Shown here piece after piece: positions 3,506-54,000 of a DNA stretch of 64,000 nt. Made by a program: the position numbers and the translations under genes. How positions within the stretch are numbered: position 1 is the first letter of the stretch; each line of letters begins with the position of its first letter. The notes under the pieces were generated by a model. It searched no databases. It was given only the letters and a program-made list of their open reading frames with translations, and had not been told where the DNA came from. Origin of the DNA: Okamejei kenojei (taxonomy: Eukaryota); the NCBI GenBank assembly GCA_035221665.1, contig CM069145.1:39308001-39372000 (forward strand), written 5' to 3'.

Positions 3506-4469
3506 CTGAATGGGTGACACAAGCAATTGCAGATGATGGAATCTTGAGCAAAACACAGTGTTGGAGGAACCCAGCGGTCAGGCAGCATCTGTGGAAGGAA
3601 TGGACAAGCAACGTTTTGGGAATGGACCCTTGATCGTATTGTGAGGAAACTGTGCTCAGTCCCCAGGGGAGACCCTGACCCTCTGGTTGTCTGCCACTTT
3701 ATTTCTCCATCCCACCACCACATGGACCTTTCTGTCTGTGGCCACCTACATCACCTCATCTCATCTGGGCACATTGCAGGAGGACTCAATATCTGCGTGA
3801 CGAAAAGGAGGCCATTCAGGCCATCGTTCTTACCCCAACACTTAGCAAGAGCTTTCCATTCAGTCCAATTCCTCTTATTCCATCTCCCTAAATCTTGCAA
3901 ATATCCCCCCCACAGGAATTTCCTTCAGAAAATTCATTTTTAATGTGCTTACAGTTCCTTTTTGTATCAAAACACTTTGTCAAATAAAAACATCTTGCCT
4001 GGCAAAAATCAATCTTCCAAGGAAGTTTTTTTCTGAGGCAAACTTCTCTTTTTTGGCTATTTACAGCACGTTGTGAAGTTTCTTTTCATTGTTGTTACTA
4101 TGTAAGACAACATTTTTATTTTAAGAAGATGCACCTTCATCATTGGTCAACTGCCACCAGGTTTCCGACTGAGCCTTTGTTTTCAACGTGGAACTGATCC
4201 AAGTACTCTGATTGTTTGTGCACATTTCTTTGATCCTGGGCCTAATATCAAATTTAAAGCAGCTGTGGGGAAAACTGAAGCATTCTTCTCACAGAAAATT
4301 CATGCGGTGCGTGTATTTGTAGCCATATCTCACCAGGACTTTGGGAACTATCCAACTCTTGCACCCTGGACGTCTGAAGAAGGGTTCTGGCCCGAAATGT
4401 CACCTATTATTTTTCTCCAGAGATGCTGCCCGATCCGGTGAGTTACTCCAGCAATTTCCGTCTGTAAAT

Positions 4470-4815
4470 TCACAAATTATAGGAGCAGAATTAGGCCATT
4501 CGGCCCATCAAGTCTACACCACTATTCAATCATGGCTGATCTATCTTTCCCTCTCAACCCAATTCTCCTGCCTTCTCCCCATAAACCTTACTAATCAAGA
4601 ATCAGTCATCCGTATTAGAAATATCCATTGACGGCCTCCACAGCAGTCTGTGGCAATGAATTCCGCAGATTCACTACCCTCTAACTAAAGAAATTCCTTC
4701 TCATCTCTTTTCTAAAGGTACGTCCTTTTATTCTGAGGCTATGGCCTCTGATCCTAGACTCTCCCACTAGTGGAAGCACCATCTCCACATCCACTCTATC
4801 CAGGCCTTTCACTAT
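4470..4815 (-). mobile_element. CR1 LINE 3' fragment
   Basis: Contains aggagcagaattaggccattcggccc, the reverse complement of the CR1 3' UTR hairpin. Confidence 0.85.
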
Positions 4816-5227
4816 TTGATTTCTGAATTCTCTCCCTATTTACAAAATCGTCTATACCTTTATTCCTACTACCAAAATTCCTACTGCTGTTTTGAAAATT
4901 ATTCATCAGATTCCTGTGTCATATAGAAATAATGAACCGCAGATGCTGGTTCACACACAAAATATGCTGGAATAACTCAGCGGGTCTGGGAACATCTCCG
5001 AAGAACATGGATAGGTAATGTTTCAGGTCGAGACCTTTTTCAGACTGGCAATGCCCATGTAAAATTAACCAAATTTACCATGCAGATTTCTGTATATTCT
5101 CCCTGTGGCCGAGTGGGATTCCATCGGATGCTACAACCCTCTACAACCAATTATTTTGTTTGCAGTGGTTATTGGAGGAAACTCAGCGGTTGATCAGCAC
5201 AAACTGAAACTCACAAACATCATGTGG

Positions 5228-5490
5228 CAGGCGGCACAGTGGGGTAGCGGTAGAATTGCTGCCTCACAGCGCCAGATATCTGGGTTTGATCCTGACTATT
5301 GGTACTGTCTGTGCGGAGTTTGTACGTTCGCCCTGTGACTGCACGGATTTTCTCCAAGTATTCCGTTTGTAGGTTAATTGGCTTCGGGAAAAATATTGTG
5401 CATTGTCCCTAGTGTATAGGATAGTGCTAGTGTACAGGGTGATCGCTGGTCGGCTGAAGGGCGTGTTCCTGCACTGTATCTCTAAAGTCT
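5228..5490 (+). mobile_element. tRNA-derived V-domain SINE (HE1-like)
   Basis: Pol III A/B-box-like head (ggcacagtgg...gggtttgatcc), a central domain shared with other copies, and a CR1-like tail ending ctaaa. Confidence 0.85.
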
Positions 5491-5654
5491 AAAATAATAC
5501 TGGAGCGTGATAGCGACAGTCGACAGGGAGAAGATTATTCTCCATTCTATACAGCAAGTTACATATCCCTATTGCATTCTAATTGTGCCACTTGGTTTCA
5601 TGGAGCTTATGCTGCTCTGTGAAGTTACCAATACGTAACCAATTTAGAGACATA

Positions 5655-6860: not shown

Positions 6861-7882
6861 AGAGGGCACCATTGGGCATACCTTTAGAATGGAGATGAAG
6901 AGGAGGGGATGTGTATCTATGGAATTTATTGCCACAGGCAGCGGTGTAGGCCAAGTCATTGGGTATTTTTAAAGCAGAGATTGGTTCTAGATTAGTGATG
7001 GTATCAAAAGATTATGGGAGAAGGCAGGAGAATGGGGGTTGAGAGGGAAAAATAAATCAACCTTGATCAAATGGCAAAGCAGATGCGATGGGCCAAATAG
7101 ACTAATACTGCTCCTACAGGTATGTCATGAACTTCTCTGTGGAAGCTTGTAAGAGTCACTGGAAACATGTAGGAGGAGACTGAATTCCTTCAGTCTCCTC
7201 CGGAAGTAGAGGTGTTAGTGTGGTCTCAGTGAGGGTAACTCATCTCCAGCCATCAGAGTCCCTCCGTTAACTGGGTTTGCACAACATGTAGTATTGTAGA
7301 TCTCTTTTATATTTCAGGGGTTAGAACGCATTTAGTTCCCTCCTGTACGTCACAACAAACATGTTGTGTTTCTTTCAATCAATGCCATCATTGTAAGAGC
7401 CTATTTAACCCTCGAGGAGATATTACACCAATACCCATGAGATCTTCAGCTTGCATTCAGTATCTTCACTTCCCAACTGGTGGTAAATAAGAAAATAAAT
7501 TGTCACCGTATTTCACCAAGTTGCTTTATTTGTGACATTACAGCGAACTGCTACCTCTAAATGGTTAAACACCATTATTTTGATTTTTAACCATGTAACA
7601 AGTATGTTTATTAAAGGTGCGTTCTGGCACCTTCTTGAGTCTGAAGAAGGGTCCTGACCCGAAATGTCACATTTGCATGTTCTCCAGAGATGCAGCCTGA
7701 CCAACTTAGTTCCTCCAGCACTTTAGTTTATTCTTTTGTAAGCCAGCTTCTGCAATTTCTTGTACCAAACAAAAAAAACGTGTTATTTTACTCAGTATCT
7801 CCCTCAGTTTCAAAATTCAATAAAATCATAAACATATTTATAAAGGAGTTTTAAACGGAATTCATATCAAGATGCTTCACCC

Positions 7883-8190: not shown

Positions 8191-8319
8191 CCCATGGAAT
8201 CATCAAGAACATTTGACAGCATGAAAGAACAGGTGACCAAAAGCTTTAAAAGTTTTTGCTAAAGAGAGAGGGTCAGATTGATGAGGGAGACAATTCCAAA
8301 GGATAGGCCCCGGTACAGT

Positions 8320-8708: not shown

Positions 8709-8779
8709 GACGCTCCTCCGTTTTAGTTCTATCTCTCCAATGGATTAAAAGGAACTGGACAGACATATTTTCCAGGCTC

Positions 8780-9230
8780 AAGGAACTGCAGATGTTGGTT
8801 TAGTAAAAAACATACAAAGTGCTGGAGTAACTCACCGGGTCAGGGAGTGTTTCTGGAGAACATGGATATAAGACATTTTGGGTCGGGACTAATTGTGATC
8901 AGGACGTGGGGGGGGAAAGAAAGCTAGAAGAAAGATGTGGGCAGGACAGCCTGGCAAGTGATAGGTGGATACAGATGGGGAGGAAGGGGTTATAGGAAGA
9001 GGCTTGGACAAAGGCCAGAGATGAAAAGAGAGAAGGTGTGAGATAAGAATAGCAGATTTGCAAATTGTCAAGCCAGAGGAAGTAGTATAGGTGGATGAGA
9101 TGGGAGAAATGGGTGCGAGTCCAGGTGGGATCCTGGTAAAGGGGGGAAGGAGTGACAGGTTGTTTGTAGGTAAGTTACCTGAAATTAGAGAATTCAATGT
9201 CCATACCATTAGTACTAAGCTACCCAGACT
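8780..9230 (-). mobile_element. Penelope-like element 3' fragment
   Basis: Reverse complement of the terminal repeat (gctggagtaactc...) plus pyrimidine-rich 3' UTR. Confidence 0.7.
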
Positions 9231-16712: not shown

Positions 16713-18231
16713 ACATATTTAGATGACGTTTCAGCACTCTGTGTCTTCTTTTGTAAACCAGCATCTGCAGTTTCTTGTGTCCACAAAAAAAAGCACATGT
16801 CTTTTATTGATCAGGATGCACAAAGCTTCCTGAGAAAATCGCTGGGAATTTTCCCCCCACCTCTCTTCCAGCTTCCTCCTCCCTTATCAAAGCAGCGTCT
16901 CTATCTGACATGTTAACTCCCATGTTTTATTCAAATTCCCATAAGAGAAGCTCCCTGCTTCATGTTTTGAACCTCCCAATATCTTCTGTTCCTTCTACCG
17001 CGTTATTATTTTCCCTGACATTCACTCAAAATATTTTGCACCATGCCATTGTTTTTTTTAAAAAGGATGCAATGTATGAAAGCTTCTCTCCCTTCACTTC
17101 CTGGTTCCCCCGCTTCTGTGCGAGAGGCCAGGGTGACAAAACACGATTGGCCTGGAATAAAAAGACTGAGCTCATTTCCAGCCAATCAGACCCCAAAACA
17201 GGGGAGACTGACATGGCTGCCTCTCCGCTAGATGGTGAAGGCAGGAAATGGAATGCCCAGAGATGTAGCCCGACCACTAGACTGATAAAGAAGTCTGCTG
17301 GACAGGGATGATTAAACGGACTTTAGGAGCGGGAATCAGAATCTCATTGCCTGAATGTTTTCAATAACCTGCCACAGAAAATTATACAGCTCTATTGTCT
17401 AATTGTTTTCACCTAGCCCACAGCTAACAATGGACTGTTTCCTTGATTATCGTGAATTTTTTGCATATCTTTCATTCATTTGTTCGATATCCCTCTAAAT
17501 CACCGTCTATGTCTCTCATTTCCCTTTCCCCTCTCTCAGTCTGAAGAAGGGTCTTGACCAGAAACGTCACCTATTCCTTTTCTCCAGAGATGCTGGCTGA
17601 ACCGCTGAACTACAGATTTTTGCGTATATCTTCGATTTAAACCAACAATTGCAGTTCCTTTCTATACAAATTCTACAGCATGTTCTTTAGGTTGGGTTTT
17701 AAAAAAATGACCCACAGGGAAAATAACACAAGGTTTGGATAGAGCCACTGTGTCTGAACCCACTGAAGAACACACAACCCTTTACACCTGTATCCGCCTA
17801 TCACTTCATATAGAAACAAAGAACTACATAATAACAAAAATAAACACAAAATACTGGAGTAAATCAGCGGGTCAGGCAGCATCAGTAGAGAAAAGGAATA
17901 GGTGACGTTTTGGGTTTAAGAAACCGTATGAAGAAGGGTTCTGACCCGAAACGTCACCCATCCTTTTTCTCCAGAGATGCTGCCTGACCCGCTGAGTTAC
18001 TTCAGCATTTTGTGTCTATCCACTTATAACTTGTCAGGCTTTGTTCTACCCCCACCTCTCTTCTAGCTATCTCCCACCATTACCATCAGTTTGAAGAAGG
18101 GCCCCGACCCGATAGGTCAACTATCCATGGTCTTCAAACATGCTGCCCGACCCGCTCAGGTACTCCAGCACTGTGTCTTTTTTTTGTAAACCAGCATCTG
18201 CAGTTCCTTGTGTCAAACAAGGTTACTGAAA

Positions 18232-18530: not shown

Positions 18531-19492
18531 CCCTAAGTCATTATCAATGCGACCAGTGCTATTAAAGCAGCATTTCTGTGGTCTCCTGGGACAGAACGGA
18601 CAGGATCCTACCTCGCCAGAATCTCGCCCTGAGTTGTCATCCAACTAGTTCCACTACACTGATCTCTCCCCGCTGCACTGCAGTTGATTTTTCCTTTGAA
18701 TATGAATCCATTTTCTTTTGCCAGTTGCCTTTACATCTGTCTTCACTGCTCTTTCAGATCATAACAGCAATTTAAACAACTTTCACTTTCCCCACCCATT
18801 CATTTGTCACATAGCTTTGCAACCCCCCTTTTCAGTGGAAATAGTGACTTGTTTACAATTTTCAAACCATTGATGATTTTGAAACCCGCTGCTCCAAATG
18901 TTTTTCCACATAAATATAGGGCTCTATTTCTTGTATTGTTCTACAAATTCTCTTTCACATCCTGTCCCAGGACCTTTTTAAAATGTAGACCCCAGAGTTG
19001 GACCCAGTTCTCAAATGTGTCAAACCCCGTGAAATATATATAATCAAGATGGCTTCCTTTGTCACTTATTTCACCCTTCTAACAACCAAACCTCCTAATC
19101 TTATCCACCCATCACCTGCCAGACTTTGTCCCGCTCCCACCTCTTTTCCAGCTTACTCCCTCCCAACCACAAACATTCTGAAAAAGGGTCCTGACCCGAA
19201 ACGTCATCTGTCCATTTCCTCCACAGATGCTGCCTGACCCACTGATTTTCTCAGGTATTTTCTGTCTTGCTCAAGAGTCCGGCGTCTGCAATTCCTTGTG
19301 TCTCCAATTAAGAAAGCTTCCATGCTATTGTTGGCTATAACTCTGTGTACAACAGCATCATAAAAATAGTCTACCTATGTACAATAGTACCTCCAATATA
19401 ACAAACAATCTCACTACAGCATTATCAATCAAATATTTAGTGTCTAACTGACATTTTTTGGCAGAAAACAAAAGACTCGGCTAAAATGATTA

Positions 19493-21168
19493 AAGGTAGA
19501 CAAAAATGCTGGAGAAACTCAGCGGGTGAGGAAGCATCTATGGAGAGAAGGAATAGGCCACGTTTTGGGTAGAGACCCTTCTTCAGACTGATGTCGGGGA
19601 GGGGGTGGGAAAAAAGAAAGAAAGAAGCGGAGACAGTAGGCTTGTGGGAGAGCTGGGATGGGGGAAGGGAAGGAGGGAGAAGCAAGGACTATCTTAAATT
19701 GGAGAAGTCAATGTTCATACCGCTGGGGTGTAAACTGCCTAAGCGAAATATGAGGTGCTGTTCCTCCAATTTGCGCTGGGCCTCACTCTGGCAATGGACG
19801 AGGCCCAGGACAGAAAGGTCAGATTCGGAATGGGAGGAGGAGTTGAAGTGCTGAGACACCGGGAGATCAGGTTGTTTAGTGCGAACTGTGTGGATGTGTT
19901 GGGCAAAATGATTGCCAAGCCTGCGCTTTGTCACGTCGATGTAGAGAAGTTGAGACCTGGAACAGCGGACGCAGTAGATGAGGTTGGAGGAGATGCAGGT
20001 GAATCTCTGCCTCACCTGGAAAGATTGCTTGGGTCCTTGAATGGAGTCGAGGGGGGAGGTAAAGCGACATGTGTAGCATTTCCTACAAGGGAAAGTACCC
20101 GGGGAGGGGGTAGTTTGGATGGGAAGGGACGAATTGACCAGGGAGTCTGTGGAAAGCAGAAAGGGGAGGAGATGGGAAGATGTGCCCAGTGGTGGGATCC
20201 CATTGGAGGTGGCGAAAATGTCGGAGGATTGTATGTTCTATGCCACGGCTGATAGGGTGGAAGATCAGGACAAGGGGGACTGTCCTTGTTACGAGTAGGG
20301 GAATGGGGAGTAAGAGCAGAGCTGTGGGATATTGAGGAGACCTCGTTTATAGTAGAAGAGGGGAACCCCCGTTCCCAAAAGAATGAGGGCATCTCCGATG
20401 CCCTGTTCTGGAACACCTCATCCTGGGTGCAGATGCGGCGTAGACGGAGAAATTGGGAGTAGGTGATAGAGTCCTTACAGGAAGCAGGGTGGGAAGAAGT
20501 GTTGTCCTGATAGCTATGGGAGTCAGTGGGTTTGCAGTTGATGTCGGTCAGTAGTCTGTTACCTGTGATAGAGATGGTGAGATCAAGTAACGGTAGGGAG
20601 ATGTCGGAAATGGTCCAGGTAAATTTGAGTGCCGGATGGAAATTAGTGGTGAAGTGGATGAAGTCAGTGAATTCTGCATGGGTGCAGAAGGGAGCACCAA
20701 TGCAGTCGTCAATTTAGCGGAGGTAGAGTTTGGGGATAGGGCCACTGTACGCCTCGAACAAGGATGTTTCGAAGTACCCTACAAAGAGGCAAGCATAGCT
20801 GGGGACATGCACATGCCCACAGCTAAGCCTTGGATTTGGCGGAAATGGGAGAAGTCAAAGAAAAAGTTGTTGAGGGTAAGGACCAGCTGCGCTAGGCGGA
20901 GGAGAGTATTGGTAGACGGAGATTGGTTGGTTCTGCGGTCGAAGACCATCCTGGTGGGGGATGAAGATATAGAGTGAGTGGACATCCATAGTGAAGATGA
21001 GGAAGTGGGGGCTTGGTAAACTGAAGTTATGAAGGAGACGAAGAGCGTCTGAGGTGTCTTGGACATAGGTGGGTAGGGATTTGACCAGCGGGGATAGGAT
21101 GGAGTCGAGGTATGTGGAAATAAGTTCGGTGGGATATGAACAAGCAGACACAATGGGTCTGCCAGGAC
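19493..21168 (-). mobile_element. Penelope-like retroelement, 5'-truncated (RT plus GIY-YIG endonuclease, degenerate)
   Basis: IFTMDVHSLY, LTLNNFFFD..QIQGLAVG and NLIYCVRCSRSQLLYIDVTKRRLGNHFAQH. 9-bp duplication AAATGATTA (19484-19492, 21169-21177). Confidence 0.92.
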
Positions 21169-24100
21169 AAATGATTAGTAGGAAAGTGAGGATGCACGGG
21201 CGATCAAAGAGGGAAATCCAGAGATTAGGAACGTGTTTTGTTTAGTTTATTGTCATGTTACTGTTGTGTGCTATCCAGTCATTGGAAAGACTGAACATGA
21301 TTACAAGCAGAGGCCCAGGAGCTGTTGGTGAGGGAGGAGCAACGTCCAAGCGGTGAGTGTAAAAACACAGCGCGGGGCTTTGTTTTTTCAGAGGTCCAGG
21401 AGCCGTTGGCGAGGGAGGAGCGACTTCTGAGCAGTGAGTGTAAAAACCCAGCACGGGGCTTTCTTTTTTCAGAGGCCAAGGAGCCGTTGGTTGGTGAGGG
21501 AGGAACCAAAATCTGTAACGTTCTAAATCTGTAACGTTCCATTCAATTAACTGGGCTTGAGGAAGCCGCTGATTGGTGGGAAGTGGACTAGAGTAAGCAG
21601 CTGATTGGCAGTCAGATTCCAGCAGTTTGTAGTGTACTGTACTTTGTATTTTGTATTGTATCCAGGGTAAGGGGGAGTATGAGGCCCAGGGCAGTTTACT
21701 GTTCTGGATGTCAGATGCGGGAGGTCATGGAGTTGGATAGCCCTCCAGACGTCCACATCTGCGCCAGGTGTGGCGAGATGGGGCTCCTAAGGGACTGTGT
21801 TAGGAACCTGGAGCAGCAGCTCGATGACCTCCGTCTGGTCAGGGAGAGTGAGGAGATCATAGAGAGGAGTTACAGGGAGGCAGTCACTCCAAAACCACAG
21901 GAGGCAGACACGTGGGTCACAGTTAGGAAAGGAAAGGTCAGAGGCAGGGACTAGAGAGTACCCCGGTGGCTGTACACCTTGAAAATAAGTACACCTGTTT
22001 GAGTGCTGTTGGGGGGGACAGCTTACCTGGGGGTAGCAACAGCGACCGGGCCTGCGGTACAGAGACAGGCCCTGTTGCTCAGAAGCATAAGGAAAAGAAG
22101 AGGAGGGCATTAGTAATAGGGGACTCTATAGTTAGGGGGTCAGATAGGCGATTCTGTGGATGCAGTCAGGAGACCCGGATGGTAGTTTGCCTCCCAGGTG
22201 CCAGGGTCCGGAATGTGTCTGAATGTGTCCAAGATATCCTGAAAAGGAAGGGAGGGGAGCCTGAGGTCGTGGTACATATTGGTACCAATGACATAGGTAA
22301 AAAAAAAGAAGAGGTCCTGAAAGGAGAATTTAGGGAGTTAGGAAGAGAGTTAAGGAAAAGGACAGCAAAGATAACAATCTCAGGATTACTTCCTGTGCCA
22401 CGCGACAGTGAGAGTAGGAATGGAGCAAGGTTAAGGATAAATGCCTGGCTGAAGGACTGGTGCAGAGGGCAGGGATTCAGCTTTCTGGATCATTGGAACA
22501 TCTTTTGGGGAAGGAGTGACCTGTATAAAAAGGATGGGTTGCACTTGAACCCGAGGGGGACCAGTATCCTGGAGGGGAAATTTGCAAAGGCTACTGGGGG
22601 GACTTTAAACTAGAACGGTTGGGGGGAGGGACTCAAATAGAGAAAGCTAGTAGACAGGGTCTGAGGCAGGAGGCAGAGAAGGGAAGCACTCAGACCCAAC
22701 ATGTAGGGGGGAAAGAAGAAAAAAATAATAAACAGAGAATAAGAGGTGGTGCGTTTCTTAAATGTGTGAGCAGAGAGAAAGAGAGGTATAAAATGAGGGT
22801 AGAAGGAATTGGTAGCAAGGTGAAAATTAATAGTGGCAGGCTGATAAATCCAGGGCAAAAATCAAAAGGGGCCACTTGTCAACATAATTGTATAAGGAGT
22901 AAGAGTGTTGTAAAAACAAGCCTGAAGGTTTTGTGTCTCAATGCGAGGAGCATTCGTAATAAGGTGGACGAGTTGAATGTGCAGATAGCTATTAATGACT
23001 ATGCTATAGTTGGGATCACGGTGACATGGCTCCAGGGTGACCAAGGCTGGGAGCTGAACATCCAGGGATATTCAATATTCAGAAAGGAAAAGGAGGTGGG
23101 GTAGCGTTGCTGGTGAGAGAGGAGATTAATGCAATAGAAAGGAAGGACATTAGCTTGGAGGATGTGGAATCGATATGGGTAGAGCTGCGAAACTCTAAGG
23201 GGCAGAAAACGCTAGTGGGAGTTTGTGTGCAGGCCACCTAACAGTAATAGTGGAGTTGGGGATGGCATCAAACAGGAAATTAGAAATGCATGCAAAAAGG
23301 GTAAAACAGTTATAATGGGCGACTTCAATCGACATATAGATTGGGTGAATCAAATTGGCAGGGGTGCTGAGGAAGAGGATTTCTTGGAATGTATGCGGGA
23401 TAGTTTTCTAAACCAACATGTAGAGGAACCAACGAGAGAGCAGGCTATTCTAGACTGGGCATTGAGTAATGAGGAAGGGTTAGTTAGCACTCTTGTTGTG
23501 CGTGGCCCCTTGGGCAAGAGTGACCATAATATGGTTGAGTTCTTCATTAGGATGGAGAGTGACATAATTAAGTCAGAAACAAGGGTTCTGAACTTAAACA
23601 AAGGTAAGTTTGAAGGTATGAGACATTAATTGGCCAAGATAGACTGGTAAGTGATTCTTAAAGGGTTGACAGTGGATGTGCAATGGAAGGTATTTAAAGA
23701 CTGTATGGATGAACTACAACAATTGTTCATCCCAGTTTGGCAAAAGAATAAATCAGGGAAGGTAGTGCATCCATGGATAACAAGGTAAATCAGGGATAGT
23801 ATAAAAACAAAAGATGAAGCATACAAATTAGCCAGAAAAAGCAGCCTACCAGAGGACTGGGAGAAATTCAGAGTCCGGCAGAGGAGGACAAAGGGCTTAA
23901 TTAGGAAAGGGAAAATAGATTATGAAAGAAAACTGGCAGGGAACATAAAAACTGACTGCAAACGTTTTTATAGATATGTGAAGAAAAAGAGATTAGTTAA
24001 AACAAATGTAGGTCCCTTGCAGTCAGAAACAGGTGAATTGATCATGGGGAACAAGGTCATGGCAGACCAATTGAATAACTACTTTGGTTCTGTCTTCACT

Positions 24101-29806: not shown

Positions 29807-29939
29807 GTACTCACTCGACAGCCCTGCCGTCCGCTGCCGGGGGAGGGAGGGAAGCGGGTGCAAGCAGTGGAAAAAAACAAACGGCACGGTCCATCTGCAT
29901 TGGCAGCCGATCTCTTTTTGGAAATTGAAACGTCGAGAG

Positions 29940-31180
29940 AGTTGCAAGTTTCATCTTGTAAAGAAGGGGAACTGTTTATTCCTTCACACGAGTTGCAATA
30001 CAGATCTCTGTTTTTGAAGAGTTCAGTAAGCAATGATTTGTACGGTGTATTGTAGAGGCACCAGTGTCAAAGTCATCTTGCAAAGGAGGGAAATCGTTTA
30101 TTCCTTCACCCAGGTGCTGTGCTGCAATTCTGGTATGTTTGGACAGTTCAATAAGCAAGGAATTGTACGGTCTATTGTAGGGTCATCAGTGTCAAAATCA
30201 TCTTGCGATTGTGGAGAATAGTTTATTCCTTCACACAGGTGCTGGATTGCAATACAGTTCTCTGTTCTTGAAGTTCGTTAAGCAAGGAATCCTACATTGT
30301 ATTGTAGAGGCAAGTCTCAAAATCGTCTTGCAAAGGAGGGGAATAGTTTATTCCCCCACACAGGCACCGAGTTGCAATTCAGTTTTAAAAAAAATGTACG
30401 ATGTATTGCAGAGGCACTACTGTCAAAATCATTGTTCAAGGAAAGACTCAATGCTGGAGTAACTCAGCGGGCAGACAACATCCCTGACGAGCCCTGGAGA
30501 ACATCGATTTATGATGTTTTGGGAAGGGACACTTCTTCAGACTGGGTTACAACGTTGAGTTCCCCCTGCATGTTGTGTCTTTCCATGCAAAGGACAGTGG
30601 TAGTTTATTCCTTTACACAGGAGTGAGTTGGAATATAGCTCTCTGTTTTTGGATAGTTCAGTAAGTCTGGAATTGTATGGTGTATTGTAAAGGCACCATT
30701 ATCAAAATCATCTTGCAAAGGCGGAGGAAAGTTTTATTCATTTGCCCAAGCACTGTAATGTAATATTTTTGAGGACTTGAGTAAGCAAGGAATTATATGG
30801 TGTTTTGTAGAGGTACCACTGTCAAAATCATCTTACATAGAAGAATGTTAGTTCATCCCTTTACACAAGCAGCATGTTATAAAACTCTGATATTTTGAGA
30901 GTTGTCAGCTAGGAACAGTATGGTGTGTTGTAGAGGCACCACTGTCAAAATCATCTTGGAAAGGAGGGGGACTCGGCGGGTGAGGCAGCATCTATGGAGT
31001 GAAGGAATATGCGATATTTTGGGTCAAGACCTTCCTCCAGCATTTTTGTCTACCTTTGATTTTTCCAGCATCTGTAGTTATTTCTTATATATGGTTGTTA
31101 TACTCTGATACTTTTGGAGATTTAACAAAGCTAGGAATTTTGTGGTGCATTGTTAGAGACACCACTGTAAAAACCTACCT
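29940..31180 (+). repeat. Degenerate ~120-bp tandem array (about 9-10 units) at the start of intron 1
   Basis: Recurrent gttcagtaagcaaggaattgtacggtgtattgtagaggcaccactgtcaaaatcatcttgcaaagg...tttattccttcac. Interrupted by Penelope-derived repeats at ~30450-30545 and ~30970-31080. Confidence 0.85.
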
Positions 31181-32934
31181 TTGAAATAAAGACACAAAGT
31201 TCTGGAGCAACTCAGCGGGTCAGACAGCATCTCTGGAGAACATGGATAACTGACATTTCAGTCTAACGAAGGGTCCCAACCTGAAACATTGCCTATTCAT
31301 GTTTTCCAAAGATGCTGCCTGACCCGCTGAGTTACTCCAGTTCTTTGTGTTGCTTTTTTTTGTAAACCAGCATCTGCAGTTCCTTGTATCCTGCTTTTGA
31401 AAGTTTATCTTTAGAAAGATGTGAGTAAAATGATATGGCAGAAGCTAATTTTCTGTGGTCGATCTACTCTTTGGAGAAACATCATGAGCTCTATAAATGT
31501 TGGAGCACTTGAGCTTTCAAATTGCTGGGGGTTTGGGGAGGGAATTAGTTTACTTGAAGTTGTAGTTTTGATGCCATGGCATTTCAGTTCTGTTCCTTGG
31601 ATACGAATAGCATTAGTTTCTTTTTAGAACTGTTCTTGTCTGACATGCAAATTAATAATTGCATTAAATAGTTACAGTTGAGAAGGATTTTAGTTTTTTG
31701 ATTAAGTTTTGTAATGAATATTTTGGCAGTGCTTAATTAGATTGCCAGGCTGAGAGGTGGAGGGGCAATGACTCCAACCGGGCTAATGCATTTAACTATC
31801 CCTATCAACATATAAATAAAATGAATATTAGTCTGTATATGAAACAGTGTTTTCTTTAGAAAAATAACGTATAATAAAATTGTCTCAATGGCAGTTTTGG
31901 TTAAACTGCAACTAAGTGCTGGCATTAGATCACTTTTTTTTTAATTGTATTTGAGTTATAGTTGAGAATAATAATTTTTCTAGAATTGTTACAGCAATGT
32001 GAGAAACCATTTCACCCATCAAGTTGGTAGTGCAGTCCTGTGAGTCGACTAAATTGGGCACAACATGACTGTAATGTTAAGATAAACTCAAAGCTGGAGT
32101 AACTTAGCAAGACAGGTAGCAATTCTGGAGGGAAGGAATTGGTGCTGTTTCGAGTCGACCCTTCTTCAGACTGGTTAGGGCATGTTAACAGTTTATACGT
32201 AAATATATATTTTGCTCTGAATTGTTTTAGAAGAATGTTATAAAGAAAGCCGAGGGAAACGGTATAATTGTTATTCATACCTATGCAAATGTTTGTAATG
32301 TTCAGTGGTACATTAGTAACTAGAAATGTCCTCATACGTAGATGATTGATGAAAGAGAAGCAAGCAGACAATGCATATTAGCTGATGTTGTAATTAAAAG
32401 AGAGCTGGTGGCTTGGGTTAGGTCATGAATTTAGGTGGCTTGTGGTGGAAAATGCTGAAGCTAACATTTTACAAGTAACCTGTAAATATGAGACAAAAGA
32501 TTCAATAGGTTTTCCAGCAAATTTTCTACATTTTAGGGAAGACAGCGGACACCTCAAATACCCTAGCATGTTGCTTACACCCGGTGACAGTTTTCTTGCT
32601 CTGTGCAGCTAAAATAGACAACAGCTATAAACTTGCATCTTCAGAAAATTGTGTTGAAATTCAAAAGCCAGGTATGTTTGCTGATTTCTTCATTGTGACT
32701 TTGATGTGTTAGAACTTTTCCTATTCAAGTGTGCATATATCTGTAGTTTGGGTGAGTTCTCATAGGTACATGTATCAAATACCTGTGATAGACACAAAAT
32801 GCTGGAGTAACTCATCGGGATAGGCAGCATCTCTCGAGAGAAGGAATGGGTGATGTTTTGCTCAAGACCCTTCTTCAGACTATACCTGTGACAGTGGTTA
32901 CTTCACATGGGATCTGTTTTGATTCTTATTTTCT

Positions 32935-38953: not shown

Positions 38954-41305
38954 GTTTGAACCCTGCTGAGGCTGTGAAGTGGCTCATGGGATGAAGATGA
39001 GTCTCTTTTTAAGGTTTTCATTGTTCATTGAAGGTTGTTGTTCAGTGAGGAAATGTTGGCAGAGCTAACATTCCAGATCTTTTGTGAAAGGTCCATTATC
39101 TTGTTTTATTTAATTAATGGTGTGGGCAAGGCCCAACATCTGCAAGTATCTTAATACGGCAACTCTACCTGAATTTGCAGTGATAATATTTCTAGAGTAG
39201 AAGCAAGAAATGTTTTCTCTGTTTATCCTTTAGAGTAACTTTTCAGTGGATGTCTTTTGAACATGAAACAAGTTTGCAAGAGGAGTATATTACTGCAGAT
39301 CTACATTGACCATGTAAAGTTGCTCTTCCTTGTCATTTGCTCTAGCTTATCTGATGTTTTATATTAAACCCCTTGCCTCCTGTGCAAGTTCCAATCTTTA
39401 CTTTTCGTTAAATGTTTGAAAAGTTAAAGTAAGTGAGCCCCATTTCTTGGGTTGCTGTCTGCAAATCAGAATCCCAGAATGGGCCATTCAGGGCAACAAC
39501 TAACTAACTCTTTCAAAGACTAATTCAATTAGTCACATTCTTCCCCCTATCCTCTTTGCATGAGCAATATATTTTCTAGACCTGATTTATACAAACCTGA
39601 TTTAACTATTTCTTATAAATCTATATCAACCACCCTATTATTTTGAGGCAACTTTGAGACCAGTTTCTCCATGATGATCAAGTCAACTGAGTAAAACTTT
39701 GACTAGCTGCACAGTCAGGCAAATTGTCCACGCTGGCTTACTACCTTTTTTTGTGACAATGCTATCCAATGATAATTATGCAGTGTATCCAATGATGCGT
39801 TGTGCATTACATGAGGACCGTGCACCACTTCAGTGCTTTGAGGAAGGAGCAGGAAGCTGTGGTGTACTGGTGAAACTGTTGTAGGATTTGATGGCGAGAG
39901 CGTTCTCCTAAAGGTCTTGGTCCTTGTTGGTAGAACCACTGCTGCTATCTTCCTTGTGGTCAGCTACCATTGACAAATGACTTGCAACCTGCTGCTGATG
40001 CTTACATGACCTTGAGGTAAGAATCTTCTGTGAGCAAGCTGGAAGAGTGCTTGATGGCTGCACTTATTGGTAGTGGTGTTTGTTTGATTGCACACTGTGT
40101 ATCTTGCATGTTATTGGCATGGTGTTTGCCTGCTAAACAATGGACTGCTGTAAATGATGGAACATTTTATTATTGTGATATAATTGCATTCAAGGATACT
40201 GTGCCAGAGCAAACATATTATTTTTCATGTAATAAATACCCAAAAAATCATCTATTCATTTTCTGTAGGGATGCTGCCTGACCCAAGTTATTCCAGCATT
40301 TTGTGTCTGTTTGGTATCGATTTTCATATCCGTTTGGCGATCGCATTTTCGTTCCAAAAAGATCTGATATTCCGGTTTAGAAGTTGAAAAACACAAGTAA
40401 TTTTCTTAATTAACAACCATGTGTTGGAGGTATAACTTGTCAAAAGATTTGTCATGGTTTTCTCGGGTGCATCAACCGATGGAAAGCTTGGTTGTATTTT
40501 TCTATCTTGGCACAATTTCAGATTTCATACCGTCCCATTGAGCCTTCTTAGAGCAACATTTTTCAGATTTTAAAATTGATGACAACAGCACGAGTCAGTT
40601 TTCAGACTGGGAATTTACTTTTGATCAGCTTTTCCATCTATCTTGTGGGTGTATCACATTCTTGAAATTCCAAACCACCAGGTTTACCTCCGGTATGTAT
40701 CGAAGTTTAAATTGGAGCAAAATGTGCCTGAGATTTTGAAGCATGGAACTGCGGAGGTTAGAAAGCCTTAAACATAAACTGGAAATGCTCAGTAGCCCAG
40801 ACAGCATCAACATCCACTGGTAAACCTTAACCCCACCCCAATATGTTATCAAACCTGCTAGTTTCCTCCAATATTTGTGCTGTTAGATAAAAAATTGATT
40901 CGTTCTGACAGAAACTAGAAAGTTTGGTCGAGTCCTCGGGAATTCAATAATTTCAAATAAACGACCTTTCCAGTTTATAAGGGAACTGGCCAGTTTGCAT
41001 GTACAAGCAGAAAATGCTGGGGTGCTTGGTGGATCAGGTGAAATGTTAGTTTGGGCAGCGAGGTTGGTGTTTCTGGTTCACTTATGTGTTGGCTCTTTCT
41101 CTGTGGTTGTTTCATGGCCTGCTGAATATTTCTAGCATCTTTTGTACTAGGTTTTCCTTGCCAGTGAATATTTCCTTGACTCTGAGTGTTTTCAACTTTG
41201 GAATGTCAACAACAATAGTTCTACAACTCAGCTGAAGCATTGTTCTACATTTTTTGTTGTCCCTTTCCAAACAAAATTGAGTGCCACTAACAAGTATTCA
41301 CAACT

Positions 41306-42970
41306 ATGTTCAAGACACCTGAGACACTCTCCGTCGTCTCCGCGCATTACATTCTCCAGGCCCCCCATCCTCTCATCTTCACCATGGACGTCCAGTCACT
41401 CTACACCTCCATCCCCCACCAGGATGGTCTCAAAGCCCTCCGGTTCTTCCTCGACCAGAGGAGCAACCAATACCCATCCACTGACGCCCTCCTCCGCCTA
41501 GCGGAGTTGGTCCTTACCCTCAATAACTTCTCTTTTGACACCTCCCATTTCCTCCAAATACAAGGCGTAGCTATGGGCGCACGCATGGGCCCCAGCTACG
41601 CCTGCCTCTTTGTCGGGTACGTCGAACAATCCTTGTTCTCGGTGTACCAGGGCCCCATCCCCGACCTCTACCTCCGTTACATCGACGACTGCTTTGGTGT
41701 CACCTCCTGCACCCACACACGACTGACTGACTTCATCCATTTCACCACCAACTTCCATCACGCACGCAAATACACTTGGACCATTTCTGACACTTCCCTA
41801 CCATTCCTTGACCTCACCATCTCTATTGCAGGGGATACACTCCTGACTGACATCCACTACAAACCAACTAACTCCCACGGCTACCTGGACTACTCTTCCT
41901 CCCACCCTGCTTCCTGTAAGGACTCCATCCCCTATTCCCAATTCCTCCGTCTACGCCGCATCTGCTCCCAGGATGAGGTGTTTCACACCAGGTCATCACA
42001 AATGTTCTCATTCTTCAGAGAACGGGGATTACCCTCCCCCACTATAGATGAGGCTTGCACCAGGGTCTCCTCCATAGCCCGCAACACTGCCCTCTCTCCC
42101 CATTCCCCCCCCACTCGCAACAAGGGCAGAGTCCCCCTGGTCCTCACCTTTCACCCCACCAGCCGGCACATACAACACATAGTCCTCTGCCAGTTTCGCC
42201 ACCTCCAATGTGACCCCACCACTCGCCACATCTTCCCATCTTCCCCCCCCCCCCCCCCCCCCCCCCCCCCGATCTGCCTTCAGCAAAGACCGCTCCCTCA
42301 GCAACTCCCTTGTCAATTCTTCCCTTCCCTCCTGCTCCACCCCTTCCCCGGGCACTTTCCCTTGCAACCGCAAGAGATGCTACACTTGTCCCTTTACCTC
42401 CCCCCTCCACTCCTTTCAGGGACCCAAACAGTCCTTCCAGGTCCGACAGAGATTCACCTGCACCTCCTCCAACCTCATCTACTGCATCAGCTGCTCTAGA
42501 TGCCAGCTGATCTATATAGGTGAGACCAAGCGGATGCTTGGCGACCGTTTCGCCGAACACCTCCGCTTGGTCCGCAATAACGAACCAGACCTCCCGGTGG
42601 CTCAGCACTCCCCCTCCCATTCCGTATCTGACCTCTCTGCCCTGGGCCTCCTCCACGGCCAGAGTGAGCAACACCGCAAATTGGAGGAACAGCACCTCAT
42701 ATTCCACGTGGGGAGTCTGCATCCTCTGGGATTGAACATTGAATTTTCTCAATTCTGTTAACCCTTGCTGTCTCCTCCCCTTCCCACCTCTCCCTCAGCC
42801 CTCGGGCTCCTCCTCATTTTTCCTTTCTTCTCCCCGCTCCCCCCCCCCCCCCCCCCCCCCCCCACCTCCCATCAGTCTGAAGAAGGGTTTCGGCCCGAAA
42901 CGTTGCCTATCTCCTTTGCTCCTTAGATGCTGCTGCACCCGCTGAGTTTCTCCAGCCTTTTGTGTACCCT
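41306..42970 (+). mobile_element. Penelope-like retroelement, 5'-truncated (RT plus GIY-YIG)
   Basis: MDVQSLYTSIPH, QIQGVAMGARMGPSYA, YLRYIDDCF and NLIYCISCSRCQLIYIGETKRMLGDRFAEH. 14-bp duplication AAG(T/A)ATTCACAACT (41292-41305, 42971-42984). Confidence 0.95.
42871..42910 (+). ncRNA. Putative minimal hammerhead ribozyme in the Penelope-like terminal repeat (representative copy)
   Basis: CUGAAGA-A-GGGUU(UC)GGCCC-GAAA-CGUU: hammerhead boxes CUGANGA and GAAA around a GC stem, followed by a self-complementary AACGUU. Confidence 0.6.
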
Positions 42971-48961: not shown

Positions 48962-50244
48962 ACCAATCCTTGTGTTAAGAGAGTTGGATATTCCGAAAAA
49001 CTCAAGGAATCATGGGGTTTGTCAAAGGTCACTCGATGTAAAGAAAAAGGCAACGAAGCGCTGCCGAACTGCCACTGGACTGTTTCCCCGCCCGAGGGGC
49101 GGCTGGAGACGTCCAGCACGGAGAAGAAAGCCAGCAAAAGCCAAGCACCAGCCATCAACTGCAATACACACAAAATGCCGCAGTAACTCAGCGACACACG
49201 CAGCATCCCCAGAGAGAAGGAATTGGTGACGTTTCGGGTCGAGAACATTTTCCAGAGATGTTGCCTGACCCGCCACGCCACCGTAGCATCCAATGTGCAT
49301 CCCCAGCGATGCCCGGCGCTCGGCCCCCACCGGCTGCCAGGGGGCCAACTGACAGCCCCTGGACAAGGCGAGAGACGCAGGCACCCCGCCGGTCCAGGGT
49401 TGCCGGCCAACCCGGCAGGACAGGCAGAGCTGGAGCCAGCGCATCCCCCCGCGCTGGCTGCAAATCCGGGACCTCCCCGCCACCCCGGACACCTCCGGCA
49501 GCCTCCGGATAGGGACGGGACACCCGGGGTCGGGTCTCCGGACACCTCCAGCAGCACCGGAGACCCGACCCCGACCACGGGACGAAACGCAGCTACAAAG
49601 AATGTTTATAGTGAGTGACCTATGACCTGCGCATGTGCAGTTGGTGAAAAGCCAAATTGGTAGTGTATTTTGTTTTACTAATTGGAATGGTGTTGCCATT
49701 TTTAATTCATAATCTTTTCAAGCTACATTGACCTGGTGCTGCTTTTCATTGGGGGGGAAAAAAATCATAAGCAATAGTTTTCAGAACCAAGGATAACCGA
49801 CCAGTACTGTTAAATGTCTGCCGAGCTTCACAGCCGTGTATCTCTGGCTTCTTAATAGTTGTCTCCACTCCTTCTCCCCCCTTCTTTTAAAAGACTTGCT
49901 GTACACTATGCTTTAGCCGTCTTAATTACAGCACCAACCTTCCTGTTCATTGCGGAGTGTGTCTGCATTACATTGGCTTTGCACCATGTGAATTTCAGTC
50001 AGACAGCGCACCCCACGCTTGCCCTGTCCACCGCCTGCAGAATGGGCTGGTGAAGGAAACGATCTGTGTGTGTGTGTTCCACTCTGCCGGTCGCCGTTCT
50101 AGTTGCCGGTTTTTCAGGCGACTGCCGGCAACTTGACAATTACCTGAAAAATCTCATAAGTGGGATAGGCCCATGACAAGTGCCACACAAAAGGAGATCT
50201 CTACTTTTTGGGTGAACATAGTGTTGACGTGGTTGTTGATTTAA

Positions 50245-50535
50245 GGGCCCGTCCCACTTGCATCTCCTAGGCACGCAAATTACGCAAATGAAGTTTTGGG
50301 TCAAGACCCTTCTTTCCGACTGAAGAAGAGTCTCGACCCGAAACATAACCCATTGCTTCTCTCCAGAGATGCTGCCGGTCCCGCTGAGTTACTCCTGCAT
50401 TTTGTGTCCATCTTCAAATGATGTCACGCGCTCCAGAAGGCTGTGCAGGCGCATGAAATCGCGTGCAACCTTCGCGGGACCGTCGCGTCTCGTGGTCGCG
50501 AATTAGCATGCCAAGGACACGCAAGTGGGACAGTG
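50245..50535. mobile_element. PIF/Harbinger-like MITE containing a Penelope-derived repeat
   Basis: taa|GGGCCCGTCCCACTT ... AAGTGGGACAG. Internal sequence shared with 2420-3065. Confidence 0.65.
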
Positions 50536-50689
50536 GTTTTAGTCATGTAAATAAATGACACTTCATGTAATGAGAAGACTTCAGATCTCCGTGCATTTAT
50601 ATTGTGCCAGTTCACCACCTCATTGCTTCTTTTATCAATGCCGTAGCCCCTTTAGAGCCATATGGCAATGTTGCCTCTTGCGTTACTTT

Positions 50690-51035
50690 TACATTTTTCC
50701 CCTTTCACCTTAAACTAATGTGTTCTGGTTCTTAATTCCTCTATTCTGGGTAAAAAAATGCATTAATCCTATCTATTCCCATCATGATTCTATAAAATCA
50801 TCCCTTAGTCTCCTGCGCTCCAAGGAATAAAATCCTAGCTTTCCCAATCTCTCCCTATAGCGCAGACACTTTACTACTGGTAACATCCTTGTATCTTCTC
50901 TGTACTCTTTCCCAACTTAATAACATCCCTCCTATAACAGGTTGACCAAAACAGAACAATACTCTTAATATGGTCTCGCCAACATCTTGTACAACTGTAA
51001 CACGATGTCCCAACTTCTGTACTCAATACCCTGAC
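50690..51035 (-). mobile_element. CR1 LINE fragment
   Basis: Degenerate minus-strand translation resembles the CR1 C-terminus (VRVLSTEVGTSCYSCTRCWRDH). Confidence 0.75.
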
Positions 51036-54000
51036 TTTATCCTGGAATTGTACAGTTGAACGTTTTCTCTCCAGCTGTGGCACAATATAAAAAGAAAATC
51101 TCTCATTAGTACTACAGACCTTTTTCCCTCAATTTTGATAGGCATGATACAGGTTTTTGGCTGCTTCATGCAACAAGATTTCAAACCCATAATTAAAGTG
51201 ACTGTTGCTAACATCATAGTGAATTAATAAATGTAATAAAGGTGAAAACTATTTATTAACATTAGATGTAACTATTTATGGACATGGTAATCATTAATAT
51301 GATTAGATTGAAGCAGAGACAAAGCTGTAAAACACTTAATGGGAGCTCATAACTTGCCCTCCAAGACTGCAAGTTGTGTGCCTGACTTGCTGGGAGTTCA
51401 TTTTTCAAACTAACAAGCTCTTATCTTGTTTACATTACTCAAAATTGTATCTTATCAGTTACAAAACAAATGCACGTGTGAGTGAAAATGTTGCTGGTAC
51501 AATTTGGGTGATTGTGGAAGAATTGAGTCTAATTAGCGGTATGTTATTGGGTCTAAAGCATTCATGGTTACATAGATATTTAAAATATCAACTTCCTGAA
51601 AGCCTTCAAAAAGTAAAAGATACTGCAGTAGCTGGTTTATACCAAAGATAGACACAAAATACTGGAGTAACTCGGCAGGGCAAGCGGCATCTCTGGCGAA
51701 AATGAATAGGTGACATTTTGGGTCATGACCCTTCAAATTATTTTTTTGTTGATTACCTTTCCAAATCCTTTCCTAGTCTGAAGAAGGGTCCCGACCCAAA
51801 CTGTTGCCCATCCATTTGTCTCCAGAGATGCTGCCTGACCCATTGAGTTACTACAACATTTTGCGTCTACCCTGATAGCCTTTGTATCCCTAGGATAGAT
51901 TTGTGTAGTATGGAGGTGGTGAAGAAATAGTATATTTACGTAACAGAATTACTACTCCGTTGCGCACATCTTTGTCCTTTTCAAAAACCGGAAATCCAGT
52001 ACCAATTTTTGATTGCTTCGTAAATGTTTTGACATTGATCCATTGTCATTTCTGCTGCCCTTCAAACTTGTTTTAAAAATTGTTTACACTTCAATCAGAA
52101 TGTATTTTGTCAAATTCATCCTGTTCTGTTCTCCCACCGAAATCTTTCCCCATGGTCTCCAAATCACTTTTTCTTGATTGTCTTTCCAATTCCTTTGATA
52201 GTCTGAGGAAGGGTCATGACCTGAAACAATATCTGTCCGCTCCCTCCATAAATGCTGCTTGTGCTCCTCCAGAACTTTTTATTTTTTGCTCCTTTTTGCT
52301 CCATATTCCAACATCTACAATCTCCTTGTTTTAAGGGCATTGACTTCCAGATATCTCACAATGCATTTTAAAGTCTTTACATATTCCCATTGTATCTTTT
52401 GCTAATCACAGTAAATCATTGTCCCCTGGTCCTTAGAATGATCTGCTGATAGAAAAAGCTTCTCTATTTTATACCAATTCTGTAGGGTTGGTTGTTAATT
52501 TGTTTTCAAAAAGGGTTGATGAGGCCCATTGTGAACCATTACTGTGACTTAGTCATATTTTGTGGCACTTGATGACTTAAACTTTTTGAATGAATTGGAT
52601 TTGTATAGAATGGTAATTTCATTTCGTAGAATATTGATTTGTCTTTAATGTGTGTGACCCGAGTAATTCTTTTTCCTTTGTTCAAAACAGCGACTGATTA
52701 GCCCGTTGACTATATTTTGATTTTTTTTAAACGGGCAAAACAAGTTAAGTTTTAAAATCAAGTAGCAGCTCAATCAGTGCAAGGTGTTGCAATTAATTGG
52801 TGGTTGATACAATTGCAATCCTTTTGCATTTTCTTGTTAGCAAGTAAAATCAGAAAAGCTTTGTTTAAAACTCTTAACTATGCAAGGATTTATTGACAAC
52901 TTAGTTCGAATGAAATTGCATTCACGGGAAGCCTTTTTTAGAAACCTAAATTTAGGGTGGACTCATTCCAAAGGCTTATCAGAGACTTTCAGTGTAATTT
53001 CCCTTTCAGTGGGAGGATATGGCCTTTCAGACTCTTTTGTTTATAGTGGATTTCCACAGTCATTGTAAACAACAATATTAAAACTTTATTCGTGTTTTTG
53101 TAAGAATTTTGGACTGTAGCCTGTGTAAATGGACTATTTAGAGATGATTGGATTCTGCCTGTGCAGTCTGGTAATCAGGTGCCATTATAGTGCTACAGAG
53201 AGGTCAGATCTAACATCTGCAATTTAAATGATTGGGAAGACAAATTCCACGTTATTCTCATCGTACCTGTTGAAATTACATTATTGTATGTGAAATTGGT
53301 GGTGGCAATTTCTGTTTCTGCTGTTAATACCAACCTAATGTTTTTTGAAGGTGACTTTTCTTCGGAACGGTTTTGAACTATTGACTTTTTGTCCGTTGAT
53401 GCATTTTTGAATGTTTGCAATATTTTAATTTATTGTTCTTGCTGGTTGAGGAAGCAATCTTGGAGGAACTTCCTGCTCTTCAACCCGTATTGGCACTTTT
53501 ATATCTGGGTTGAACAAACACAGCACCGCTGACAATGAAGCATACTCTAGATCTTGCAATGAAATTTTAGCTTGATTCATGTGTTCAAACTGTGAAATGG
53601 AACCTCGCCACTTGAATCAGGTGTCCATCCACCCAGCGATGTACAGCTGATATTTTCATTACTGGAAAGTGTAGTCACCAGACTTAATTAAAAATTAAAA
53701 GAAAGTTCTTCTCTGCAGCTTAATGAAAAGGGAATGTAGTGTAGTTATTCAGCTTTGTGGTTCTGCTCTAATCATACCAGTTGCAACAAGGACTAATTCT
53801 ACGATACGATAGAACTTTATTCATCCCCGGAGGGAAACTGCTTAAGATGCTAGAATCCATACAATTAATACACCTAAATAATTGGGTAGCCAGCACTTTG
53901 CAACTTTGTGGGTTACATCCAGGTTGAAGGCTGATTCACCAACATAAAATTAAAAACAGAAATGCTGGTAACACTTAGCAAATCAGGCAGCATCCATGGA

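Follow-up and report, generated by a model that had tools for sequence, protein, structure and literature searches.

In a 64,000-nt stretch of the genome of the skate Okamejei kenojei (assembly GCA_035221665.1, contig CM069145.1, positions 39,308,001 to 39,372,000, hereafter the window), a dispersed unit of about 92 nt carries a hammerhead ribozyme motif in its first third only. We read this motif as the standard hammerhead of metazoan Penelope-like elements (PLEs) and its scattered copies as dead-on-arrival products of the PLE reverse transcriptase (RT) and GIY-YIG endonuclease, not of ribozyme cleavage; we put the probability of this reading at about 0.75. The unit itself is, with little doubt as judged by its sequence, part of the pseudo-long terminal repeat (pLTR) of several related Neptune-type PLE subfamilies in the skate. 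Since an extra core adenosine and solo dispersal of such motifs are already published, the interest that is left lies in the abundance of the family and in the fixed 5′ edge of its short units.

The repeated unit and its hammerhead motif

The unit forms the 3′ end of both truncated RT-endonuclease elements of the window and of a third fragment, 830–1371 (Table 1). The initial annotation of this DNA, made from the letters alone, had the motif capping both long copies; this holds at their 3′ ends and fails at their 5′ ends, both copies being 5′-truncated. The two long copies are 75% identical over 1564 columns. Their RT matches the Pfam model with an E-value of 9.6e-5, below the curated cut-off, and has 159 full-length relatives (best E 2e-97), while the GIY-YIG domain scores weakly (E 0.0015 and 0.029). 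They carry a Cys-x4-Cys-x2-Cys linker and a GIY-YIG-like end, and are 49% identical to a full-length relative. A cysteine linker of this kind is described as typical of Neptune/Nematis PLEs, and on this linker we label the long copies as putative Neptune-type PLEs. Seven of the 40 matches to the unit extend into one of three types of untranslated region (UTR).

These 40 matches were obtained with an iterated nhmmer profile, which gave none in the reversed window, and 25 of them span the ribozyme part. They represent 39 units, as those at 28215 and 28301 belong to a single copy that is interrupted by a piece of another repeat, about 58 nt long and with GAAACG on both of its sides. Together the units cover 3,095 bp, or 4.8% of the window (0.6 units per kb), and 36 of the 39 are devoid of an open reading frame (ORF), in line with the short ORF-less units of the initial annotation. 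A search with the 12-nt head, allowing at most one mismatch, returned 15 matches against 0.53 expected, a number reached in 0 of 100 shuffles. The initial annotation had called the motif the commonest dispersed repeat, which is borne out by 23 of the 25 top non-simple 12-mers falling inside the unit; the high density that it reported is likewise confirmed, and each of the 13 places that it listed holds a copy.

The motif runs, in order, through three leading bases, C3–A9, an extra base, stem II with its tetraloop, G12–A15.1, ACGU, N17 and two helix I bases. At every core position (C3-U4-G5-A6-N-G8-A9, G12-A13-A14-A15.1 and U16.1-H17) the majority base fits the hammerhead. The base after A9 is an A in 29 of the 30 copies covering it. 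Stem II comprises 4 bp and a tetraloop (CUCG in 7 copies, CUUG in 5, CCCG in 4, plus others), and its closing pair G10.1-C11.1 is GC in 19/29 copies and GU in 5/29. A stem of 5 bp with a 2-nt loop had been proposed initially, but such a loop lies below the 3-nt minimum of the folding model; with 4 bp, variation at the ‘fifth pair’ is variation of the loop. The palindromic helix III (positions 15.1–16.1) reads ACGU in 13 of 37 copies, and 14 of the remainder are single products of CpG decay. Helix I has only two base pairs, pairable in 21/23 and 19/20 copies, respectively; at the third position none of 16 can pair. Judged by its core, its ACGU and its PLE context, the motif is thus a PLE-type minimal type I hammerhead with a palindromic helix III, as the initial annotation had it.

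Few copies retain all of these features. Among the 25 spanning copies, all 11 core bases are present in 6, stem II also in 3, and the palindrome also only in the copy at 42874. In the latter, C3 is at 42877, the extra A at 42884, stem II at 42885–42888/42893–42896 around a UUCG loop, G12 at 42897 and the ACGU of helix III at 42900–42903, with 2 bp in helix I and a predicted cut after 42904. The consensus quoted initially has an exact match in 0 of 40 rows, and 7 of the 13 copies listed with it have a changed core base (C3 at 17928, G8 at 19178, G12 and A15.1 at 51778, U16.1 at 52203 and, on the minus strand, G12 at 19556, U16.1 at 32144 and G12 at 32850). A further core-like match at 42018 (minus strand), within the RT region and with a 3-bp stem, was rejected as a family member.

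The comparison with Rfam that the initial annotation had called for gave no hammerhead family among 7 matches (E ≤ 10, whole window), nor among 4 matches over 42820–42990, which only shows that the library models do not fit this minimal form. It had also stated that stem variants keep pairing. In 18 of the 25 spanning copies we observed one double-sided change, equalled in 276 of 500 shuffles, and a covariation score attained by 210 of 500, hence no covariation above chance. Since this is expected for copies decaying from few masters, membership of the source motif in the hammerhead class is not affected. Collections of metagenome, viral and prokaryote sequences were each searched with a generalised pattern of the motif, with 0 matches.

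The closest published description is that of Cervera and de la Peña (2014, PMC4209133), whose consensus for the minimal hammerhead of metazoan PLEs, CUGANGAH, has an unpaired base after A9 as a hallmark. The extra A noted initially is therefore real and not a new variant. In their alignment of 56 rows, as counted here, the extra base is present in 54 and is A in 30, and 18 rows read CUGAAGAA; 10 of the 11 vertebrate rows with A read CUGAAGAA. The skate motif also shares with these ribozymes the G10.1-C11.1 pair, the palindromic helix III, a GUC/GUU triplet, the location in 3′ pLTRs of truncated PLEs and the occurrence mostly as single motifs, with some opposite-strand pairs; the same paper attributes single dispersed motifs to truncated PLEs and reports pairs 100–700 bp apart. 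Its Acropora Neptune example has the same extra A, 4-bp stem II, 4-nt loop and CGUC end. Unlike most of its rows, the skate motif has a stem II at the short end of the range and a 2-bp helix I, the latter found in 6/56 rows, and no row comes from a cartilaginous fish. It reports no cleavage of monomers and low cleavage in dimers. Skate abundance (39 units in 64 kb) looks higher than its approximately 4,000 and 9,000 descriptor hits in coelacanth and Xenopus, although only 1–3 of 25 skate copies would pass a strict descriptor. Elsewhere, reviews mention dimer cleavage (citing Lünse et al.) and G12 as the general base.

Abundance beyond the window was approached with public DNA contigs from two organisms, aligned to 19400–20000 at 80% likeness. 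Summed contig depth was about 4.5e5 and 5.0e5 times that of the unique flank at the bin of the ribozyme head, and 1.1e6 and 2.0e6 times at the 3′ bin; the source table does not give a copy number, and these ratios are usable as orders of magnitude only. Given the 1–3 intact motifs per 25, working ribozymes would be far fewer than units. The unique flank 19400–19480, beside the second long PLE, shows single-copy depth with few differences in both organisms, so that the site is common to both (for the flank, not for the insertion itself).

Loss of core bases follows the general decay of the copies, whose median non-CpG divergence from the window consensus is 15% (37 matches). G12 and the palindrome both lie in CpG pairs; G12 was changed in 13/37 copies versus 26/105 at other CpG guanines (p 0.28), and non-CpG core guanines in 10/57 versus 48/290 elsewhere (p 0.85). 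In our reading, several source subfamilies retained the core, and the copies inserted from them have decayed like neutral methylated DNA.

Ends and architecture of the copies

The 5′ ends of the short units are not randomly placed. We considered 31 UTR-less units; the 7 UTR-bearing matches were set aside, as were the partial tandem and one half (the second) of the split copy. Twenty start in columns 1–4 of the model (binomial p 1e-16, with a uniform distribution as a rough null) and 11 at columns 6 to 43, and none starts at columns 30–35 around the cut site (column 31/32). UTR-less copies thus have a common 5′ edge, 0–3 nt ahead of C3. As the profile itself begins at column 1, upstream flanks were examined separately; no UTR-type match above the 99% null was found in those of UTR-less units, a test that an extension of a few bases would escape. 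Immediately ahead of column 1, the templated C stands in 7 of 12 cases.

The edge is also marked by a target-site duplication. At 32792–32881, a 10-bp duplication adjoins column 1, sharing two bases with the unit's own end, and sets the 5′ end at the A three bases before C3. As a control for chance, the longest suffix match was at most 9 in 419 of 420 mismatched pairs. In addition, among the contigs over 19400–20000, the commonest listed 5′-side loose ends fall at 19589 (X5, 402) and 19588 (X17, 389) in the two organisms, corresponding to columns 1 and 2, with AT-rich flanks in low agreement (top six rows per run). A second peak at 19591 corresponds, among the rows listed, to another UTR type. 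The same edge recurs across subfamilies with different UTRs and diagnostic sites, and UTR-bearing copies do not form a separate group (permutation p 0.76, 35 units). Splicing was rejected as the origin of the edge: solo units keep the AG and have no common upstream exon, and one duplication abuts the A.

At the 3′ side two end classes occur, one at about column 98 and one with a tail reaching about column 121–138. The tail, of 30–40 nt, is present on 11 of the 33 units reaching the 3′ end. Tail-only matches were observed at 16746–16782 and 33925–33964, with no adjoining unit detected.

By class, 7 of the 40 matches are UTR-bearing, 16 belong to head-to-head structures and 17 to neither. The head-to-head structures are ten in number, six pairs and four units with a short inverted arm (Table 1); for three of four pairs folded, the computed energy was −94 to −112 kcal/mol. 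Retrozyme-like tandems are limited in the window to one partial case (1199/1286), in which the first core is broken and the second unit lacks the ribozyme.

Several of these structures resemble each other. The units at 2–100 and 614–770, 643 bp apart, have an identical unusual junction and probably go back to a single insertion that was copied locally and not to independent events. Two head-to-head structures 48 kb apart (2501–2614 and 50314–50427) have a similar junction and a 3′ extension of about 25 nt, 88% alike, which differs from the usual tail and could be a variant tail, a shared target or part of a composite moved whole. Between 29974 and 31390, the outer ends of units 30445, 30971 and 31192 lie within about 8 nt of the same position of a tandem repeat (about 120 nt, near the start of the host intron). 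At least two of these units are from different subfamilies, suggesting a preferred target.

Table 1. Copies of the unit, PLEs and host exons in the window (window coordinates)
Positions	Strand	Feature	Details
41301..42965	+	5′-truncated PLE	RT, Cys linker, GIY-YIG, frameshifted; pyrimidine-rich 3′ UTR; terminal unit 42874-42965
42874..42906	+	Sole fully intact minimal hammerhead	UUCG loop; 2-bp helix I
19503..21230	-	Second PLE, 5′-truncated, broken	Terminal unit 19503-19589 without G12; 5′ limit approximate
830..1371	+	Third PLE, 3′ fragment	Endonuclease end, UTR, unit 1199-1287, partial tandem unit 1286-1341, tail
17406..17660	+	UTR-bearing unit 17538-17625	Tail; core intact, G10.1 pair broken
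18017..18214	+	UTR-bearing unit 18088-18178	Second UTR type; tail
19091..19302	+	UTR-bearing unit 19177-19265	Second UTR type; tail; G8 changed
8779..8983	-	UTR-bearing unit 8812-8890	Second UTR type; tail; head eroded
2421..2594		Head-to-head pair	Two whole units, 5′ tips joined via 5-nt imperfect palindrome
17844..18015		Head-to-head pair	
31192..31390		Head-to-head pair	Tail on right arm only
49168..49273		Head-to-head pair	Right arm short
50286..50407		Head-to-head pair	Left arm short; junction resembles 2421-2594
51616..51866		Head-to-head pair	40 nt apart; tail on left arm only
2..100	-	Unit with short inverted 3′ piece	Cut by window edge; junction common with 614 copy; outer limit approximate
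614..770	-	Unit 614-705 with short inverted 3′ piece	Outer limit approximate
30445..30590	-	Unit 30445-30543 with short inverted 3′ piece	Outer limit approximate
30971..31090	-	Unit 30971-31040 with inverted 3′ piece	Tail; outer limit approximate
32792..32881	-	Solo unit	Flanked by 10-bp direct repeats; G12 lost
4372..4461	+	Solo unit	Core and stem II intact, helix III now AUGU
7638..7764	+	Solo unit	Tail; core and stem II intact, helix III now AUGU
4931..5046	-	Solo unit	Tail
28215..28368	+	Solo unit	Interrupted by ~58-nt piece of another repeat (two matches)
32084..32172	-	Solo unit	
52200..52328	+	Solo unit	Tail; U16.1 changed
27381..27446	+	Solo unit	Without 3′ part
3551-3635	-	Solo unit	Eroded
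27987-28049	-	Solo unit	Eroded
40238-40306	+	Solo unit	Eroded
43092-43176	+	Solo unit	Eroded
53960-54025	-	Solo unit	Eroded
63381-63468	-	Solo unit	Eroded
63814-63875	+	Solo unit	Eroded
29420-29812	+	Mitoferrin-2 (SLC25A28), first coding exon	By protein similarity
~57825-58055	+	Mitoferrin-2 (SLC25A28), next coding exon	By protein similarity

Proposed run-off of uncleaved RNA and rival explanations

The best reading of the edge, which we hold at slightly better than even odds, is that reverse transcription began at internal priming sites on uncleaved RNA and ran off its end. Element RNA would start at an initiator-like TCAGTC three bases before the core. The initiator consensus is YYANWYY, and the edge bases fit it with +1 at column 1. 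The RT would then prime internally at one of two sites, about 95 or about 130 nt downstream. Priming at the 5′-most pLTR would run off the 5′ end of the RNA and produce a unit of 95 or 130 nt with a fixed edge, while priming at the downstream pLTR would give long 5′-truncated copies retaining the UTR and the end of the ORF. Head-to-head pairs could arise by priming on both target strands or by self-priming, the latter proposed for inverted pairs in 2013. Since the units begin before the core, their templates would have been uncleaved. In the source elements the ribozyme probably cuts weakly, depending on dimers or assisted by protein, and in nearly all scattered copies it would be inert.

The steps of this scheme have precedents in the anole Poseidon element PAc, for which Frangieh et al. 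(2024, PMC11167929) describe RT starts, in vitro, at two internal sites that define the tail, extension of both target strands, hammerhead cleavage only with protein and insertion of ribozyme mutants. The tail on 11 of our 33 units matches this published 30–40-nt tail between two RT start sites. PAc has, like the skate unit, the extra base, the ACGU helix III, a GUC triplet close to where the repeated region begins, two RT start sites spaced by an optional tail, and priming of both strands. It differs by its clade, the skate elements being Neptune-type, and by an ORF that starts in stem II, the candidate ATG of the skate lying at columns 53–55. Short copies made by run-off and having a fixed 5′ edge are not mentioned in the sections of this paper that were covered, nor in the text of its supplements; its Fig. 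S2 may bear on the claim. More generally, in mostly open literature we found no title or abstract describing the skate unit or a fixed 5′ edge on solo pLTRs.

Other parts of the architecture are familiar from further PLEs. Head-to-head pLTRs with junction palindromes, tails, solo pLTRs, short duplications and an internal promoter with an initiator are reported by Arkhipova et al. 2013, Craig et al. 2021, Schostak et al. 2008 and Goubert et al. 2022. In particular, PLEs from Adineta vaga, a rotifer (Arkhipova et al. 2013, PMC3846280) have head-to-head inverted pLTRs with junction palindromes, an optional tail, 8–10-bp duplications, solo pLTRs and an initiator-like pLTR motif; unlike in the skate, copy number is low, pLTRs are approximately 190–220 bp, and solos are ascribed to recombination or deletion. 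The rotifer pLTR also contains the first 12 codons of the ORF. In the skate unit, columns 37–55 (e.g. 17961–17979), 3′ of the cut site, consist of a pyrimidine tract, CAG and then ATG, kept at 95–97% per base, and are a possible splice acceptor and ORF start. An initiator-like TCA[GTC]T within about 15 nt upstream of the core was seen in 12 of the 56 published PLE hammerheads against about 4 expected, counted by eye and with a rough null; many other published rows end in YAG before the core and look like splice acceptors.

Several observations weigh against our interpretation. Among 21 near-full copies, a single one has a clear target-site duplication, and duplications around 9 inverted structures are not above chance. 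Three loose-end rows (first letter C on the plus strand) hint at a cap-derived extra G, which is known to mark capped templates; this G is present in only 2 of the 16 copies of the window starting at columns 1–2. The 24 public runs listed are all contigs, a format that does not show RNA ends; of the two tentatively assigned to RNA, one is flagged as probable DNA, and neither had a reported pile-up of beginnings or ends, so that they carry no information on transcription. The edge bases also resemble a 3′ splice site, and in Drosophila the intron ends at such a place. The window holds no full-length element with a 5′ pLTR, in which the start site and the ORF start would be visible. Contig depth over the 3′ end of the ORF is similar to that over the ribozyme head (both about 5e5 times the flank), so that the ORF-less share may be lower genome-wide than the 36/39 of the window. 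As for the ribozyme, helix I, of 2 bp only, pairs with a probability of 0.001–0.002 in the consensus computed for the window, and none of four copies folded favours stem II (probability 0–0.15). Finally, core adenosines are better kept than those of the 3′ half (7/170 versus 44/281 changed, p 1e-4), which we read as selection in the source elements and which would be compatible with some selection after insertion too.

Among the rival explanations, the initial annotation implied that a lineage-specific active variant excises itself and spreads as retrozyme-like units. The core is indeed conserved in the source sequence, one copy is fully intact, and animal retrozymes derive from pLTRs according to a 2026 preprint, which includes one chondrichthyan (bioRxiv 10.64898/2026.07.22.740005). 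Those non-LTR retrozymes resemble the skate units in being short, non-coding, pLTR-related and often monomeric, with a type I hammerhead, but they require tandem repeats with at least two complete hammerheads, whereas the skate units are dispersed or head-to-head and nearly all broken. Moreover, the extra A is general among PLE hammerheads; the window holds the single partial head-to-tail tandem and no covariation; and in the anole, insertion proceeds normally with ribozyme mutants, the main substrate being uncleaved RNA. Above all, cleavage predicts ends at column 31/32, where none of the 31 units starts. The model is largely refuted by these end positions, and we regard it as highly improbable. 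Solos and head-to-head pairs could instead be leftovers of recombination between direct pLTRs, like solo LTRs. Such recombination or deletion has been proposed for rotifer solo pLTRs, would also yield a fixed 5′ edge and a target-site duplication and, from insertions with an inverted 5′ pLTR, a head-to-head pair. It would need more than 20 formerly full-length insertions in 64 kb, of which none is left at full length and 7 UTR-bearing truncated copies remain, and repeats of about 92 bp are short for efficient homologous recombination in vertebrates; we consider it quite improbable.

A SINE-like (short interspersed element) derivative is harder to dismiss. The unit would then be a non-autonomous pLTR derivative of about 95 nt with an internal promoter, moved in trans by PLE proteins, with solos arising from solo masters. 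One diagnostic group of eight units (28301, 49168, 32084, 50319, 2421, 32792, 2504 and 27987) lacks UTR-bearing members as well as tails above threshold, and contains the closest pairs of the window (8–10% apart). In the literature, an internal promoter is described for Drosophila Penelope, DNA can be mobilised in trans by pLTR sequences alone, and non-autonomous PLEs are known from Chlamydomonas. The grouping is, however, post hoc, and by a hand calculation from 7/35 no UTR-bearing unit among eight is expected about 13% of the time. Solos in other groups have diagnostic sites in common with UTR-bearing copies, and the template of the anole protein must include the first 172 nt of the ORF, a stretch longer than the unit. 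This origin of the solos thus appears unlikely, and we retain run-off from uncleaved PLE RNA.

Genomic context and implications

The window lies in a host gene, with two coding exons of mitoferrin-2 (Table 1). The exon at 29420–29812 is 93% identical to a skate mitoferrin, 78–84% to those of rays and 63–76% to those of sharks, most of them named mitoferrin-2. Between the two exons sit 17 of the 40 matches, 8 in sense and 9 in antisense orientation, so that, in this small sample, nothing points to selection against a ribozyme that would cut the host pre-mRNA. Head-to-head pairs located in introns would fold into long RNA hairpins. Other repeats include a broken non-LTR element at 21927–25434 (plus strand), with an esterase-type first ORF and RT, which we take from its layout to be CR1/L2-like and which is followed by a GC-rich tandem repeat (25400–26300), and a broken long interspersed element at 9656–13069 (minus strand) with RT and zf-RVT domains, presumably L1-like by its layout.

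To a ribozyme class published in 2014, the motif contributes no more than an example from a cartilaginous fish. The open questions on PLEs concern the formation of pLTRs, inverted ends and tails, and the role of the hammerhead; an abundant family with a sharp 5′ edge and many head-to-head junctions would make PLE models statistically testable from one assembly. A wider picture, which we put forward tentatively and hold at rather long odds, is that skates harbour a ribozyme-headed element of about 95 nt in roughly half a million copies, whose edge marks the start of capped Penelope RNA. The family would then be a genome-wide fossil record of the PLE reaction, documenting internal priming, run-off at the cap, priming of both strands and the use of uncleaved RNA, and at least one subfamily may be a self-propagating, SINE-like parasite of PLEs transcribed by polymerase II. 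If an initiator precedes the core in PLEs generally, the hammerhead would stand at the very tip of the transcript. Its cut would remove the cap and silence the RNA; it would not release unit-length elements.

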